64,000 bases of DNA from an uncultured Candidatus Saccharibacteria bacterium (lineage in GTDB: Bacteria > Patescibacteriota > Minisyncoccia > Sungbacterales > JACQCQ01): positions 67,088-131,087 of the forward strand of contig CAZBTX010000001.1 of assembly GCA_964494945.1 (NCBI GenBank). The letters run 5' to 3'. The notes under the pieces are model-generated. The model ran no database searches. It had not been told where the DNA came from and worked only from the letters and a program-made list of their open reading frames with translations. Both the position numbers and the translations under genes were made by a program. Shown here in pieces: positions 45,994 through 50,236 of this stretch. Position 1 is the stretch's first letter, and each line of letters opens with the position of its first letter.

Positions 45994-45999
45994 AAGGGC

Positions 46000-46058
46000 T
46001 TATCCACAGATTTACTTATTTATCCCCACCTTTATCCACAATTCACCACTTATTCCCA
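46000..46058 (+). promoter_or_regulatory. Cluster of DnaA-box-like 9-mers. Two are perfect (TTATCCACA at 46000 and 46032). The others are TTATCCCCA at 46020 and TTATTCCCA at 46050. All are direct, in the mraZ upstream region.
   Basis: Seen in sequence. Consensus DnaA box TTATNCACA is established knowledge. Confidence 0.5.
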
Positions 46059-46177
46059 GTATTATGTTTCACTCCCCCATTGTCAAACATTTCACGCTGA
46101 ATTCTGATAAAAACAAAAAATGGCTTAATTGAGCCAATTTTTATAAAAACTCTATTGACTAATTCACAGGTTTTCCA

Positions 46178-46317
46178 CCCCGTTAGAAGTCCGCTTTCAC
46201 TATAGGAATAACTTTCTAGTGATGAAGCCAATATTGTGCTAGGACATCTTTTTTGATTTTAAGACGCAAAAGAAAGCGGCAGCCCCGACGTGACGTGGGG
46301 GCTTACTTCTAACGGGG
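46178..46317. repeat. Element bracketed by a 13-bp inverted repeat ccccgttagaagt / acttctaacgggg. It contains the hairpin agccccgacgtgacgtgggggct (46281-46303). It is a 9/10 variant of the cccgttagag / ctctaacggg elements at 8404-8527 and around tRNA-Thr.
   Basis: Seen in sequence. Sits at the left edge of the compositional island. Confidence 0.6.
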
Positions 46318-46364
46318 TCCACTCTACTAAAACTAGCTAAGTTCAATTGACAATCTTTTATCCT

Positions 46365-46451
46365 ATGCTTAGCTATAGCCAGTTCATTTCACAACCCTCC
46401 TTCTTAGCTGGAAGTGCCGTTAGAACAACGACCTTTCCACCCTGAGGAGGA
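46365..46451 (+). promoter_or_regulatory. Leader/promoter repeat A, copy 1 (~87 bp). Contains a TTCACA/TTGACA-like hexamer, the anti-SD-like stretch ccctcct, and the SD gaggagg.
   Basis: About 85% identical to 47322-47410. Its RBS portion is also repeated at 46912-46934. Confidence 0.6.
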
Positions 46452-46459
46452 ACTCAATA

Positions 46460-46645
46460 ATGCCAATCAGTAAGAACCGTCAACAGATGATCGGCCTCCG
46501 CCGGCTGAACGCACTGCTGAGAGTTCTCAGCTCGGCTCGCAAGGCAATTCGCCACTTCCAGCAGGGCCGTGAGGCGTGGGGGCGAGCCGCTCTCGCAGAG
46601 CTGGAACGGAATCTCCAGAGCCCGAACCTACCGAAACAGAAGTGA
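46460..46645 (+). CDS. Hypothetical 61-aa basic helical protein (island ORF1, high GC)
   Basis: ORF with strong SD, preceded by repeat A. Confidence 0.4.
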   Translation: MPISKNRQQMIGLRRLNALLRVLSSARKAIRHFQQGREAWGRAALAELERNLQSPNLPKQK

Positions 46646-46658
46646 GAGGAAACCTCTA

Positions 46659-46904
46659 ATGCCCAACTTCAATGCCGGATACCGGAGAATTGCCGAGTGC
46701 ATCTTTTTCTCGGGCATCGACGAACGCCGTTTGCTTACCCTCGCGACTTATCGCAAGAGCAAGACCTTCGCTGACGTTCGAATCGCAGTCGAAAAAGCAA
46801 AAGCAAGCTGGCACCGGAGACCGTTCAGAGATGTAGAGACACGCATCAGCGATGCGATTCGCGAAGTGGTGATCCCGAACGCCGCCGCATGCAAGGAAGA
46901 TTAG
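46659..46904 (+). CDS. Hypothetical 81-aa protein (island ORF2). Start at ATG 46659 with SD gagagg; the track ORF 46569-46904 overlaps ORF1.
   Basis: Frame-consistent ATG 13 nt after the ORF1 stop. Confidence 0.4.
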   Translation: MPNFNAGYRRIAECIFFSGIDERRLLTLATYRKSKTFADVRIAVEKAKASWHRRPFRDVETRISDAIREVVIPNAAACKED

Positions 46905-46939
46905 CAACCGCACGACCTTTCCACCCTGAGGAGGATTAA

Positions 46940-47257
46940 ATGAGATTGAGAATTGAAACCGGAGGTATACCCGTCACCGGATACGAAGTTCACGCACGGC
47001 TTCGGGGAGGACGCATTGTCTTCCGTATCTGGGATGGACAGAGGAACTCCTACGCGACAGATGAGATCACGGGGGCCGACGCGTGTGGCCGCTTGATCCG
47101 GTTTGAAGGCCGGCGAAATAAGCGGCTAACTCCCGCCGAAGCATCGCGGCGCGTGCAGAATGCAAAGGAGGACGGCTTCGAGTCGCCCTTCGTGACGTCT
47201 GGTGAGCTTCGTGATCCTTGGAAACAAGAAGGTCGACAAATAAGGCGCGGCATCTAG
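46940..47257 (+). CDS. Hypothetical 105-aa protein (island ORF3)
   Basis: Preceded by the repeated RBS module gacctttccaccctgaggagga. Confidence 0.4.
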   Translation: MRLRIETGGIPVTGYEVHARLRGGRIVFRIWDGQRNSYATDEITGADACGRLIRFEGRRNKRLTPAEASRRVQNAKEDGFESPFVTSGELRDPWKQEGRQIRRGI

Positions 47258-47276
47258 AGCCGCCCACTGCAAACGG

Positions 47277-47315
47277 GAAGCCGCCCATGCAGTACGGGCG
47301 GCTTCTTCTTTTTTC
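47277..47315 (+). terminator. Intrinsic terminator, repeat B copy 1: gaagccgccc-atgcagtac-gggcggcttc plus T-tract
   Basis: 10-bp perfect stem followed by ttcttctttttt. Confidence 0.8.
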
Positions 47316-47321
47316 TAAAAT

Positions 47322-47410
47322 ATGCTTAGCTATAGCCAGTTCGTTTGACAAACCCTCCTTCTTAGTTGGAAGCGCCTCTAACCAAGAGACCTTTCCACCC
47401 TGAGAAGGAG
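47322..47410 (+). promoter_or_regulatory. Leader/promoter repeat A, copy 2 (tttgacaaaccctccttcttagttggaag ... cctgagaaggag)
   Basis: Near-identical to 46365-46451. Confidence 0.6.
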
Positions 47411-47420
47411 AAGCTGGCAG

Positions 47421-47735
47421 ATGTCATTCAATGCCCTCCAGGAGATCCGCAAGCGGCGAGCAAGACATTCATTTTTCAGGGCATCCAGAGAAGCAAGAAA
47501 GGACAGAGCGAAGGGTTATAGGGTCATCTCAATTAGTCTCTATAACCAGCAAGCCGAAGCCGTTGACTGGGCAATGAACGTCCTACGCCGCGCCGGATAC
47601 CTCAACGCGAGCCGTTCGTTCGTCATACAGACCCTCATTGAACAGTGTCTTGAGGGTAAGAGCCCGAGAGAAATAGAGCGGTTCTTCGAGGGGCGCAGGA
47701 TGAATTTGCTAAAGCCGCGCTCACGCAAGAAATAA
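47421..47735 (+). CDS. Ribbon-helix-helix (CopG/Arc-like) DNA-binding protein, 104 aa (island ORF4)
   Basis: Beta-strand YRVISISL followed by two helices (YNQQAEAVDWAMNVLRRAGY; SRSFVIQTLIEQCL). Basic flanks. Confidence 0.45.
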   Translation: MSFNALQEIRKRRARHSFFRASREARKDRAKGYRVISISLYNQQAEAVDWAMNVLRRAGYLNASRSFVIQTLIEQCLEGKSPREIERFFEGRRMNLLKPRSRKK

Positions 47736-47746
47736 AGGAGGTAGCC

Positions 47747-48055
47747 GTGAGTGAGATTGTATCGCCGTGTAACGGTCTAGCGCGATGCTTCCGCCACCAA
47801 ACTAGATGCTCACGAATCGTGCTGACATCGCGGGAAGAGTATGCCGCACGCCAGCGCCGCAAAACGAGGCGCCGTCGTCTCTGGCGCATAATCCGTGAGC
47901 ATTATCGGGTCGGCGTAAAGTGGGGGCTAGACCCCATCCCGCACCGATACCACCTACAGGCGGTTCTCCTGATGGAGCGGGTGCGTGGTGAAGAGGAGCT
48001 ACGACAGCGTTTAGTAGCCAGCGGGCACATGGCACCCGAAAAAGAAGTAAGCTAA
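47747..48055 (+). CDS. Hypothetical 102-aa Arg-rich protein (island ORF5), GTG start after AGGAGG
   Basis: ORF plus SD spacing. Confidence 0.35.
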   Translation: MSEIVSPCNGLARCFRHQTRCSRIVLTSREEYAARQRRKTRRRRLWRIIREHYRVGVKWGLDPIPHRYHLQAVLLMERVRGEEELRQRLVASGHMAPEKEVS

Positions 48056-48109
48056 TAAGACCAATCCCGCAACGAGGAGAAGTTCTTCCGCCATGAGGAG
48101 GACAAGACA

Positions 48110-48499
48110 ATGAAGGCCACGTTGATAGAGTTCCCGTACAGCGTTGATACCGGTGATGAGTGCAAGGGGCCCCGGCGCCATACAGTGAAGTGCGGTGCCA
48201 TTCTCTTCGAGGATGGCGAACATAAGGTGCTCTTCCTCCAAGGCACTTACGACAGGCAGGGTGCGTTCTTCCATGTCACTGAGATGGAAGATGGCCGCCC
48301 CAAACTTGAGGGACACCTCTGGGATTATCGTGCGCCAGACGGTCCGGTGACCTCAATCAGGGAGCTCCCCTTCACTGAGGACCAGATACGTGCAGCGCTC
48401 GCGATGCCCGAGAAGCAGGAGTTGCTCCAGAACATTGCTCGGTCAATCAAGGAGATTGCCAAGCTCTGTGGCGAAACGGTACCAAGAATGAGTTACTAG
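48110..48499 (+). CDS. Hypothetical 129-aa protein (island ORF6)
   Basis: ORF preceded by gaggagga. Confidence 0.4.
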   Translation: MKATLIEFPYSVDTGDECKGPRRHTVKCGAILFEDGEHKVLFLQGTYDRQGAFFHVTEMEDGRPKLEGHLWDYRAPDGPVTSIRELPFTEDQIRAALAMPEKQELLQNIARSIKEIAKLCGETVPRMSY

Positions 48500-48584
48500 A
48501 CCTCGGCATCTCCGAGCTCCGAATGGTCACACACGAGAACTTTCGGCGCAAGAATGCGTTAACAAGCCGCCACACTGCAAACGG

Positions 48585-48623
48585 AAGACCGCCCAGCAGT
48601 ACGGGCGGCTTCTTCATTCTCAA
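48585..48623 (+). terminator. Intrinsic terminator, repeat B copy 2: gaagaccgccc-agcagtac-gggcggcttc
   Basis: About 50 bp near-identical to 47264-47315, including the upstream cactgcaaacgg segment. Confidence 0.65.
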
Positions 48624-48666
48624 CACGTTTTCTAAAGAAATTGTTTAAGTTATTCTGGGGTTATAT

Positions 48667-49131
48667 CTATAACAAAAGATTATCAATAGTATTTATTACA
48701 TACATAGCGTCAGAATGATACTTATATACTTCCGCCAAGGTAACCGTGATTGGTTGTCCATGAGCTAAAGCATTTTTATTTTCTACGATACTATTTAATG
48801 CATCTCGATTTTGTCTTGGAATACTGCGGACAGCGGCTTTCCAGGTCGGATTAAATCTACCCAAGAGTTCCCCAATCTTTTCCGTATCTGGATTACGGAA
48901 ATTATTCCCTAAGGAACTTTTGACAAAATTACTGATTCCATTGTTTCTAATCATGGAAACCATCTCATTTACAATTGTTTCAACAACCTCTTCATAAATT
49001 CCACAAATATAAACCACTAAAAATTTAGCTAAATATGCTTGCTCTAAATGAGAGGCTGAGGTAAAACTTTTAATATCCTTAATAGCATCATCGATCTGGA
49101 GAAGAAGATTACTAGCATTAAGACTTTTCAT
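48667..49131 (-). CDS. Hypothetical 154-aa alpha-helical partner protein, overlapping the DUF262 gene by 14 nt. The C-terminal segment ENKNALAHG weakly resembles a HEPN R/KNxxxH motif.
   Basis: Translational coupling with the upstream gene. Low GC (~33%). Confidence 0.5.
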   Translation of the reverse strand: MKSLNASNLLLQIDDAIKDIKSFTSASHLEQAYLAKFLVVYICGIYEEVVETIVNEMVSMIRNNGISNFVKSSLGNNFRNPDTEKIGELLGRFNPTWKAAVRSIPRQNRDALNSIVENKNALAHGQPITVTLAEVYKYHSDAMYVINTIDNLLL

Positions 49132-50236
49132 AGCCTAGATATTTGATAGCCATCCTAATTCTCCCCTGAACCTTATCTATATCCGTTGTTCCAGTAGAAA
49201 TATAGGATTTAAAACTCTCATTAGTCTTTAGTTTATTGTATTTCTTCTTGAGATCCTGGTCATTTTTATTAAGTAATATAGATGCAACTCCTACAGAAAC
49301 TGCGTCAAAAAGAGCTACATTAATTCCGGCTTTTATTCGGAAAGCATCTTTACCAATTTTCTTATACACAGTATTCATCACTTTAATGAAAATATTTTTA
49401 TATTTTTCTTGATCACCCTCAGATATATTACTTTTACTTTTCATGAAATCGGTTATAAAATCCTTCATAGGTTTTTTATAAGTCCTCCAACCATAATAGA
49501 GTGCAAAAAAACGAAGGATCATCTCTATGTCCTTCATACGTGTGTCTGATGTTGGCCTCTTGAGCAATTTCCTCCAGCTATCACATTGATTTAATGTGTG
49601 AAGAAATGAATTTATTTCTCCCTGAATAACTGCATTCCTTATTTCCTGTTGATTCAAAGGCATACCTCCCGTATTAAGGCGATAAAAAATTTCATAAATA
49701 CTTCTCTTATCTTGTGGATCAATCTGCTCAAAGACTGTGGCACGCAAAACTGTATTATTTAATTTACGTTTATCGGCGTCTGAAAGTTCTGCAAATAGCT
49801 TATTATTCCAAGGAGAATGCACTTCTTTTAGACGAAATGGGGCTCCATTTTCAAATGAACCCCTCAAATAGTACAGAATTGTCTTTAATCTCTGCTGTCC
49901 GTCAACTACAATTAGCTTTTCATCACCTTCTTTATACAGAAATACTTGAGGAACTGGGAGCCCAAGAAGAAATGATTCAATTAATTTACTAGCTTTTCGT
50001 TCGGGCCAAACATATTTTCTCTGAATAGTAGGCACATAGATATCCCCGTTAGAAAGCTGTTTAACCAAAACTTCAAGAGTATAGTCGGCCCCATAGGTCC
50101 TAATCTTATAAGAAGCTACATCTTCTTCTGAATCACGTTCTTCCGATTGGAGTTTCTCCAATACTAAATCCGATGCGGTTTGTTCATCCTCTATAGTATG
50201 CTCTGTTACAATAATTTTAACTCTTTTCTTCTTCAT
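49118..50236 (-). CDS. DUF262 (ParB-like, DGQQR-motif) domain protein, 372 aa, with no fused DUF1524/HNH nuclease
   Basis: Motifs LIVVDGQQRLKT and FYRLNTGGMPLNQQEIRNA are characteristic of the DUF262 N-domain of GmrSD-type enzymes. Confidence 0.7.
   Translation of the reverse strand: MKKKRVKIIVTEHTIEDEQTASDLVLEKLQSEERDSEEDVASYKIRTYGADYTLEVLVKQLSNGDIYVPTIQRKYVWPERKASKLIESFLLGLPVPQVFLYKEGDEKLIVVDGQQRLKTILYYLRGSFENGAPFRLKEVHSPWNNKLFAELSDADKRKLNNTVLRATVFEQIDPQDKRSIYEIFYRLNTGGMPLNQQEIRNAVIQGEINSFLHTLNQCDSWRKLLKRPTSDTRMKDIEMILRFFALYYGWRTYKKPMKDFITDFMKSKSNISEGDQEKYKNIFIKVMNTVYKKIGKDAFRIKAGINVALFDAVSVGVASILLNKNDQDLKKKYNKLKTNESFKSYISTGTTDIDKVQGRIRMAIKYLGYEKS

Follow-up and report, generated by a model that had tools for sequence, protein, structure and literature searches.

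Promoter-early stem-loop (PeSL) cassettes are known from T4-like phages (Arbiol et al. 2010, PMC2839356; Comeau et al. 2014, PMC4122927). According to these two papers, a PeSL is a composite intergenic sequence of a sigma-70-like promoter and a terminator stem-loop, which ends in the Shine-Dalgarno (SD) sequence and start codon of the next gene. PeSLs flank non-essential ORFans in a hyperplastic region, and they bound insertions, deletions and replacements between close relatives (PMC2839356, PMC4122927). Here, these cassettes are compared with a 2.3 kb insert (about 46340-48640) that carries six small open reading frames (ORFs). The insert lies in a 64-kb stretch of a Candidatus Sungbacteria metagenome-assembled genome (Patescibacteria, or candidate phyla radiation, CPR). 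This whole stretch is called the window.

The locus also invites a second comparison. There are 5' leaders that sequester the SD sequence and that need processing or a trans factor, such as the mRNAs that are activated by RNase III, and the type I toxin mRNAs with their closed 5' structures.

On balance, the locus looks like two tandem modular expression cassettes that are shared and reshuffled among Patescibacteria genomes, a reading of the sequences in which we have moderate confidence. The frame of each cassette would consist of a sigma-70-like -35 element (TTGAC) with a -10 element that may be extended, a 5' leader of about 75-110 nt, and a conserved intrinsic terminator. The leader and the terminator are called repeat A and repeat B. 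In the leader, an upstream CCUCCUU anti-SD sequence is predicted to pair with the SD sequence of the first gene. Small ORFan genes, one to four in number and unrelated, would lie between the leader and B, and every gene would have a ribosome-binding site (RBS) of its own. The frame is conserved while this cargo differs. The cargo would be exchanged by homologous recombination at leader A, at a 24-nt RBS submodule and at B, as has been proposed for PeSLs.

Like PeSLs, the locus has conserved composite motifs (terminator stem-loop, putative promoter, SD sequence) that flank unrelated small ORFans in a plastic region. The differences between the window and a close relative, contig L018, are bounded by these motifs, which is also how PeSLs behave. 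The junction between the first B and the second A (B1-A2, 47258-47410) reads as a strong terminator-like hairpin, a T-run, TGcTTAGCT and an SD sequence. Unlike PeSLs, the locus is found in a Patescibacteria chromosome and not in a T4-like phage, given its flanks of mraZ, rsmH, a penicillin-binding protein (PBP) gene and murE, and of tsf-rpsB, prfA, recA, ftsK and groEL. There is no sequence similarity to PeSLs, which also lack the long SD-sequestering leader seen here, and the -35 is missing at the internal B1-A2 junction. The cassette is analogous to a PeSL, and it is not a member of the PeSL family.

With the known SD-sequestering leaders, the locus shares an upstream anti-SD sequence that is predicted to pair with the SD sequence in a stable hairpin, so that initiation at the first cistron should be blocked. 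It differs from them in that there is no sequence or Rfam relationship, and in that its first genes are varied and not toxin-like.

Very little is known about the ways in which Patescibacteria, with their tiny genomes, gain accessory genes and regulate them. The locus presents a compact and recognisable frame that is reused with different ORFans, at different sites and in different lineages. If the proposed reading is true, the frame would be an uncatalogued cis-regulatory RNA motif for the phylum. It would also be a marker with which one could search for the hot spots at which CPR genomes take up new small genes, and a counterpart on a bacterial chromosome to the modular gene shuffling of phage PeSLs. 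The cargo families, six here and at least six in related cassettes, form a candidate set for functions in host interaction or conflict.

Repeats and features of the locus

The features of the two units are as follows, in order of position. The leader copies come from a repeat comparison.

46347-46352, plus strand: -35-like hexamer TTGACA of unit 1, read from the sequence
46364-46451, plus strand: leader repeat A, copy 1
46366-46374, plus strand: extended -10-like element TGcTTAGCT of unit 1, 16 nt after the -35, with a predicted transcript start near 46381
46398-46451, plus strand: predicted leader hairpin 1, with P1 (anti-SD UCCUUCUUAG with CUGAGGAGGA), P2 (UGGAAG/CUUUCCA) and a variable apical P3
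46460-46645, plus strand: ORF1, 61 aa, basic, helical-looking
46659-46904, plus strand: ORF2, 81 aa, with an ATG behind an RBS (a mechanical ORF list gives an earlier GTG start)
46912-46935, plus strand: RBS submodule ACGACCTTTCCACCCTGAGGAGGA ahead of ORF3, an exact 24-nt copy that corresponds to the 3' half of leader A and lacks its anti-SD half
46940-47257, plus strand: ORF3, 105 aa
47258-47319, plus strand: terminator repeat B, copy 1 (B1), with the GCCGCCCA box, a 10-bp stem GAAGCCGCCC/GGGCGGCUUC (47277-47305), a T-run and TTTTCTAAA
47321-47409, plus strand: leader repeat A, copy 2, with TGcTTAGCT at 47323-47331 and without a -35
47355-47410, plus strand: predicted leader hairpin 2, -35.5 kcal/mol, z -3.3, with an extra outer stem (47335-47341 / 47412-47418)
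47421-47735, plus strand: ORF4, 104 aa, with a predicted basic N-terminal helix and a core that resembles ribbon-helix-helix (RHH) proteins in topology
47747-48055, plus strand: ORF5, 102 aa, GTG start, 11 nt from ORF4
48086-48102, plus strand: degenerate RBS submodule TTCCGCCATGAGGAGGA ahead of ORF6, a fourth copy, 88%
48110-48499, plus strand: ORF6, 129 aa, identical to NCBI protein HYT39_03205
48565-48637, plus strand: terminator repeat B, copy 2 (B2), including a trailing TTTTCTAAA

The original prediction for this DNA described two duplicated transcription units, with leader copies that are about 85% identical and terminator copies that are near-identical. Locating and aligning the repeats confirms two units in the same leader and terminator frame. 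The leader copies are 86.7% identical across 90 aligned columns (91% in the first 34 nt, 81% in the next 59 nt), much as predicted. B is a real repeat, for which near-identical was slightly generous: between its copies (47258-47311 and 48565-48618), identity is 89% over 55 columns and 83% in a 36-nt core. The third copy of the RBS submodule that had been reported before ORF3 is exact, and the degenerate fourth before ORF6 can be added to it. With up to 3 mismatches allowed, leader A, B and the RBS submodule have no other occurrence in the window, where 0.00-0.02 would be expected by chance.

The part of the prediction that needs correction is that of duplicated units. In an all-against-all BLASTP comparison, the six proteins are mutually unrelated. 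What is duplicated is only the regulatory frame and not the genes, and the cargo of the two units is unrelated.

The B module is longer than first described, because TTTTCTAAA trails both copies; it runs to about 47319 and to about 48637. The predicted folds have energies of -30.8 kcal/mol (z -4.4) for B1 and -24.4 kcal/mol (z -4.6) for B2. An alignment of six cassettes, here and in related contigs, shows that the stem is kept in all of them. The consensus consists of a GCCGCC-CA box, the 10-bp stem, a T-run and usually TTTT(C/A)TAAAG.

Both copies of B (47258-47286 and 48565-48595) have two GCCGCCCA copies upstream of a single GGGCGGC arm. Since there are two boxes for one arm, B may form two alternative hairpins, a long one via the first box, or the 10-bp terminator stem via the second. 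The first box (GCCGCC) is invariant in 6 of 6 cassettes; a plain terminator would not need such conservation.

Same frame, other cargo

Further leaders were found by tracing homologues of the ORFs to their contigs. The cassettes and their cargo are listed here, where a prime marks a homologue of a window ORF.

W1 (unit 1 of the window): ORF1-ORF2-ORF3
W2 (unit 2 of the window): ORF4-ORF5-ORF6
L018: ORF1', a novel 65-aa ORF, ORF5'
L013 type (L013-L016; L025, L026): a 210-aa protein with two transmembrane segments, ORF5'
L020 (and L021): a 10-codon remnant, ORF5'
L019: a 160-aa gene, a 90-aa gene, ORF2', a 70-aa gene
L002: ORF6' alone; its leader is diverged but built in the same way

The relative L018 is 84% identical to the window and shares its mraZ flank; the downstream flank is unrelated. 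Homology to the window continues through leader A and ORF1, and is broken at the start codon of ORF2. It is back at the start of ORF5 (90.6% identity) and ends in B, which is 98% identical to B1. The site is the same in this close relative, its cargo is different, and the breakpoints coincide with gene boundaries. Gene-precise replacement in a constant frame is as expected of recombination at short shared regulatory modules.

Unlike L018, which has the mraZ-proximal site, the other related cassettes are found at unrelated chromosomal sites. The L013 cassette adjoins a pyridine-nucleotide oxidoreductase gene and a GIY-YIG gene with tRNA-Ala, while that of L020 is located between a DedA/VTT gene and a minus-strand stretch that by eye is tRNA-like. 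In these other contigs, the flanks of the frame are AT-rich relative to the cassette. The extra cargo proteins of the related cassettes have no Pfam match. The L013-type cassette is identical in two GTDB genomes, L025 and L026. Modularity, which had been predicted from the window, is thereby seen in the form of the same frame with other genes in other genomes, and of the rearrangement in L018.

L020 and L021 also hold a natural deletion variant. The 210-aa first gene of the L013 type is cut to a 10-codon mini-ORF (L020:7955-7987), directly behind an intact leader. ORF5' and B are unchanged, and the frame persists when cargo is lost.

It had also been suggested to search metagenomes for leader A in front of other genes. 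Related leaders did turn up, via the ORF homologues. Scanning for a leader pattern in JGI metagenomes gave 3 chance matches, one of which is terminator-like and two of which are in coding sequence, and the scan of IMG/VR gave 0 matches. For GTDB genomes the first pattern gave 0 matches, and a relaxed pattern gave 5, consisting of 3 chance matches in coding sequence and 2 of the L013-type cassette. With a covariance model (R1), 153 kb of sequence were also searched, and no further copies turned up.

The leader hairpin

At minimum free energy, both leaders of the window are predicted to form one long hairpin in which CCUCCUUCUUAG pairs with CUGAGGAGGA, which is the SD sequence of the first gene. 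The apical stem is CGUU/AACG in copy 1 and CUCU/AGAG in copy 2, a difference of two compensatory pairs. A predicted SD-occluding hairpin is common to 7 of 7 leaders, with z values of -2.0 to -6.2 and energies of -23 to -39 kcal/mol. P1, P2 and the bulges are conserved. The apical stem is free to vary, and the length of the apical part goes from 5 to about 45 nt among the leaders.

The consensus fold of the seven leaders has 20 pairs, of which 6 have changes on both sides. Paired cells amount to 95.7% on the stated structure, versus 41-59% if the partners are slid by 1-3 columns. The covariation score was reached by 0 of 500 shuffles. The seven leaders represent about four independent lineages (W1/W2/L018, L013/L020, L019 and L002), for an effective sequence number of 2.57, and the covariation support for the hairpin is good but not overwhelming.

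Judging from these folds, leader A is a conserved SD-sequestering hairpin, and more than a promoter plus an RBS. The original prediction of a leader with promoter and RBS has to be extended with a hairpin that buries the SD sequence in all seven folds.

Between 10 and 65 °C, the predicted probability that the SD sequence is unpaired is 0.013-0.069 for copy 1, and 0.000-0.029 for copy 2. Over all leaders it is 0.00-0.20 at 10, 25, 37, 50 and 65 °C. By prediction the hairpin is so stable that it would not melt alone, and something would have to open it. Until it is opened or cut, it would keep the first gene translationally silent. Candidates for the opener are RNase III, which could act on the interrupted stem of 20-30 bp, a helicase, or a trans-acting RNA or protein. 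Duplexes of this kind are natural substrates of RNase III, and a cut could release the SD sequence. For the RBS submodule before ORF3, no stable hairpin is predicted.

In Rfam, neither leader A nor B has a match at the gathering thresholds, and at E <= 10 there are only chance-level matches, which are to B. Two other readings of the leader were dropped. The hairpin is not an attenuator, since no U-run follows it. A conserved leader peptide was discarded as well: the sole in-frame ORF through the leader starts at the TTG of the -35, upstream of the predicted transcript start. Leader copy 1 also has a GTG-initiated frame of 19 codons, which is absent from copy 2.

Promoter-like elements

A conserved TTGAC(A/C) marks where each independent cassette begins on the left (W1, L018, L013, L020, L019 and L002), and in the leader alignment the similarity of the flanks ends at this edge. 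At the -10 position, 16-17 nt after the -35, W1, W2, L018 and L002 have TTAGCT or TTGACT with an upstream TG, and L013, L020 and L019 have TTTAAT or TTAAAT without it. A weak hexamer with TG, or a better hexamer without TG, is the pattern expected of a real promoter, the -10 being a putative one that is assigned by alignment.

Unit 2 keeps the extended -10-like TGcTTAGCT, right behind the T-run of B1. Two discrete transcripts are plausible from the sequence. Unlike unit 1, unit 2 does not have a -35.

A perfect 8-bp palindrome, GCTATAGC, is found over the -10-like region of both leaders (46372-46379 and 47329-47336), and also in L018. In the other cassette types, the short inverted repeats near the -10 are different ones. 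The palindrome may be a candidate operator for a dimeric regulator such as ORF4.

The six genes

None of the six ORFs has anything significant in Pfam, PHROGs, PADLOC or NCBIfam, and PDB sequence and profile searches with the families of ORF3-6 gave no match. Homologues were sought in an exhaustive HMMER search of 1.84 billion representatives, with the six ORFs concatenated (E <= 1e-3). This delivered 68 matches that are cleanly partitioned by ORF, all small proteins of matching length with conserved motifs.

ORF1 has one close homologue (P0009, 89% identical), at the same position in L018. The one homologue of ORF2 (P0030, 46% identical, E 1.8e-8) is inside the L019 cassette, which has the same frame. 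For ORF3 there are seven homologous clusters (36-56% identical), and for ORF4 about 44, with the motif YRVVAVSLY..QAE.VD...L..AG..KANRSLV.Q.AI. ORF5 has eight homologues, P0004 included, and so does ORF6 (29-53% identical), with P0002 and P0003 among them.

Compared to L018, the ratio of nonsynonymous to synonymous differences (pN/pS) is 0.17 for ORF1 and 0.14 for ORF5, with 0.15 for the neighbouring mraZ. Given the homologues, the conserved motifs and pN/pS (measured for ORF1 and ORF5), sequence comparison identifies all six as real coding genes under purifying selection. The pS of the cassette genes is 0.27-0.29, below the 0.46 of mraZ, which fits a more recent exchange of the cassette genes.

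Homologues of ORF5 and ORF6 also exist as single genes behind ordinary leaders (L011 and L001), and one homologue of ORF3 stands alone between proS and mreB. ORF5 itself features an N-terminal Cys/His cluster (SPCNGL.RC.RH..GC), an Arg-rich helical hairpin and the motif KWGLDPIP. AlphaFold models it as a helical hairpin, for which there is no informative fold match, and the family has no relatives in the viral contigs of IMG/VR.

ORF4 was predicted to be an RHH protein of the CopG/Arc kind. RHH proteins form their ribbon only in the dimer. The AlphaFold monomer of ORF4 has a mean pLDDT of 84.7, and a pLDDT of 95-98 over residues 41-90. The order of elements in this model fits the prediction: a basic N-terminal helix is followed by an extended YRVISISL, two helices and a further helix. 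Residues 33-40 form the extended part, which is not assigned as a strand, and the two helices span residues 42-57 and 65-77. The turn between them starts at a conserved Gly and ends in N-R-S (G-x3-N-R-S). A short hydrophobic or basic extended segment, a helix, a Gly...N-R-S turn and a second helix are what ORF4, going by its model, would share with CopG, Arc and MetJ; a long basic helix at the N-terminus and two additional elements at the C-terminus set it apart from them.

The searches do not back this up. ORF4 has no Pfam match, and of the 45 members of its family a single one has RHH_1, at E 0.068. Profile searches, of the kind that had been proposed as a check, found nothing significant, with hhalign against a hand-made RHH alignment at a probability of 0.4%, and a best small-protein match at E 0.23 in the PDB profile search. 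All Foldseek matches in PDB and BFVD have E > 1; weak entries include AtaR, TraM, TCP-domain and HicB-family proteins. An RHH identity is plausible from the model, and ORF4 is probably a small dimeric DNA-binding protein.

Homologues of ORF4 are mostly on high-GC contigs. One of these, P0088 (113 aa; L027/L028/L029:6001-6342), is on a contig from a soil metagenome, with a DUF3892 gene on one side and a TrwB-like ATPase on the other. Near it are DUF932, PDDEXK_1, DUF87 and caspase-DEAD helicase genes. This surrounding resembles an integrative and conjugative element (ICE) or another conjugative element, in an organism that is much more GC-rich than the window.

Alternative explanations

Several observations weigh against cassettes that are shared and reshuffled. 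Neither a donor element nor a recombination intermediate is seen. The frame is rare: with the patterns used, exact-pattern scans find it in 2 of 185,579 GTDB species genomes, and in no IMG/VR or JGI contig. The sample of cargo is biased, because L013 and L020 were found via homologues of ORF5. The covariation statistics are thin on account of the few leader lineages and the low effective sequence number. As to the promoter, the -10 hexamer of the window (TTAGCT) is poor, unit 2 goes without a -35, and a consensus promoter scan called nothing at the -10 position of the frame, nor at the B1-A2 junction. Finally, shared regulation without mobility could also conserve a leader and a terminator.

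That last point can be developed into a regulon. Leader A would then be a riboswitch-like element, or a translational operator that responds to a protein or a small RNA. It would be retained ahead of small genes of related function, which have to answer to one signal, and the cargo differences would be ordinary operon evolution. Conserved P1, P2 and bulges around a variable apical stem are typical of a recognition element, a leader that is predicted not to open thermally needs a trans factor, and a structured element upstream (46172-46318) shares the TTTCCACCC core of the 3' arm of the leader. A single irregular hairpin however leaves little room for a ligand pocket, and it has no Rfam match. 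A regulon also gives B no obvious regulatory need to be conserved alongside the leader. It does not account for a whole unit that is GC-rich compared to each host flank at unrelated loci, or for cassette genes that are less diverged synonymously than the neighbouring core gene. We consider a regulon quite unlikely as the explanation, while noting that it is compatible with mobility and does not exclude it. It is also unlikely that the island is a decayed integrated mobile element, such as the early region of a prophage or the leading region of an ICE or plasmid, with the units as moron-like accessory operons. Such an origin would agree with a GC content above that of the host, with a variable spot beside two tRNA genes and a low-GC defence pair that resembles PD-T4-2 and NsnA, with the different right flank in L018, and with P0088 and its ICE-like neighbours (TrwB-like, DUF932, PDDEXK and DUF87 genes). 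What speaks against it is that no integrase, structural, replication or transfer gene is found within about 8-10 kb on either side, nor among ten larger window ORFs that were checked. The called genes in the same flanks include no transposase either, and no att-like direct repeats are visible at the island ends. The ORF5 family and the leader have no relatives in IMG/VR, neither the DNA of the island nor the ORF4 protein has a match in GenBank phages or PLSDB plasmids, and the same compact unit from -35 to terminator occurs elsewhere without a further element around it.

The remaining readings each fail direct tests in this analysis. Toxin-antitoxin or anti-defence operons, in which ORF4 is an RHH antitoxin or repressor and ORF5 (or ORF6) its partner, are suggested by the RHH-like topology of ORF4, by the mere 11 nt between ORF4 and ORF5, and by the adjacent defence genes. 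Homologues of ORF5 are found without ORF4 in L018, L013, L020 and L011, though, ORF4 homologues occur alone, and the two are not conserved as an adjacent pair. There is no PADLOC, Pfam or PHROGs match for any of the ORFs, and the model and fold search of ORF5 give no toxin-like fold. This is very improbable, and nothing points to the anti-defence, toxin-antitoxin-like or plasmid-maintenance role that was originally put forward. Integron gene cassettes resemble the locus in their small ORFs of unknown function on one strand, and in their imperfect hairpin repeats with a variable terminal part. The hairpins might then be attC-type sites folded from single-stranded DNA, and the layout is indeed similar, with a stem at the base, small extrahelical bulges, another stem and a terminal structure that varies. 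That the locus belongs to this class is hardly credible: integrons have an IntI tyrosine recombinase with an attI site, and no such recombinase is found among the genes called within about 8-10 kb on either side or among ten further window ORFs. The stem base reads CCTCCTTCTTAG ... CTGAGGAGGA, without RYYYAAC/GTTRRRY core sites. The hairpin moreover lies 5' of the gene and overlaps its RBS, including the SD sequence, and each independent cassette brings its own TTGAC -35 and terminator, as a single unit at scattered loci; integron cassettes are promoterless and are expressed from a shared Pc promoter. An RNA thermometer, finally, would also place an SD sequence in an imperfect stem with G-U pairs and bulges. 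With hairpins of -23 to -39 kcal/mol and an SD sequence that is predicted to stay shut up to 65 °C, this can practically be set aside.

Modular cassettes that are exchanged between genomes remain the favoured reading. A bolder version of it is that the frame is an undescribed gene-cassette system of Patescibacteria, in which the hairpin leader and the terminator serve as the substrates by which small genes are moved and swapped between genomes, without a linked integrase, and in which the lock is opened in trans. This is speculative, and decidedly unlikely in its full form. The structured element at 46172-46318 is a candidate for the opener: it could compete for the anti-SD arm via the TTTCCACCC core that it shares with the SD arm.

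Chromosomal setting and nearby elements

The locus is 100% identical in contig JACOYZ010000017.1 of GCA_016181625.1 and in four independent Logan assemblies, with both junctions covered. An assembly chimera or artefact is ruled out by these five concordant assemblies (the NCBI record and four from Logan) and by the relative L018.

On the left, the island is bordered by rsmH and mraZ, minus-strand genes that head the PBP-murE cell-wall cluster. To the right there is a low-GC (34%) pair of defence-like genes, followed by tRNA-Tyr, tRNA-Thr and tsf-rpsB. The GC content of the island and its ORFs is 52-60%, versus 48.5% for the whole window and 34% for the two genes on the right. The ten larger ORFs elsewhere in the window are housekeeping genes (recA, ftsK, groEL, uvrC, RNase J and similar), and prfA is also in the flanks.

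The defence-like pair (48667-50236, minus strand) sits between the cassettes and the two tRNA genes. Its first gene has a HEPN RiboL-PSP domain (Pfam 6.5e-16; PADLOC PD-T4-2_B 9e-4), and its second is DUF262/GmrSD_N (PADLOC NsnA 2e-78, PD-T4-2_A 2e-53). L018 lacks the pair at the equivalent position, so that the region between mraZ and the tRNA genes looks like a variable hot spot.

At 46172-46318, upstream of the cassettes, the predicted fold is multi-branched and 142 nt long, with a perfect 14-nt inverted repeat (ACCCCGTTAGAAGT / ACTTCTAACGGGGT) as its closing stem. The predicted energy on the minus strand is -78.3 kcal/mol (z -6.35), and z is -3.9 on the plus strand. On the minus strand, a terminator-like hairpin (46121-46136) and a T-run follow. 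The core of the element is about 93% conserved in L018, while the surrounding sequence diverges or has indels, and there is no Rfam match even at E <= 10. The region of its 5' arm has the core of the RBS submodule, TTTCCACCC. This core has 6 copies in the window, versus 0.72 expected, and 4 of the 6 are within 46172-47400. From its sequence, the element could be an unannotated non-coding RNA, a decayed leader, or a partner of leader A.

Further upstream, at 45995-46060, GTGG motifs recur in 10-nt phase on the sense strand of mraZ (on the plus strand: ttatccacag / tttatccccac / tttatccacaa / ttcaccac). They lie between a promoter-like site (46086-46058) and the start of mraZ, and they are almost fully conserved in L018. 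We take these to be probable MraZ operator boxes, presuming the repeat binding of MraZ.

A homologue of ORF3 is also part of a quite different array in a JGI metagenome (L017:3100-15141; 3300028610, Ga0309788_101280). Downstream of leuS, some 15 small ORFs follow each other on the same strand over 12 kb. The modules of this array are its own and differ from those of the window. They consist of 11 copies of AAACAGGTTCTAACATCGTCC... and of a terminator, GCCCGAGATTGTTTCTCGGGTTTTTGGTTTGACAAA, that runs straight into a -35. There are also 84-nt repeats with a tRNA T-arm-like GGTTCGAGTC, in which ARAGORN finds no tRNA. From its sequence, this array is a second PeSL-like one, unrelated to the cassettes of the window, in a CPR-like genome.

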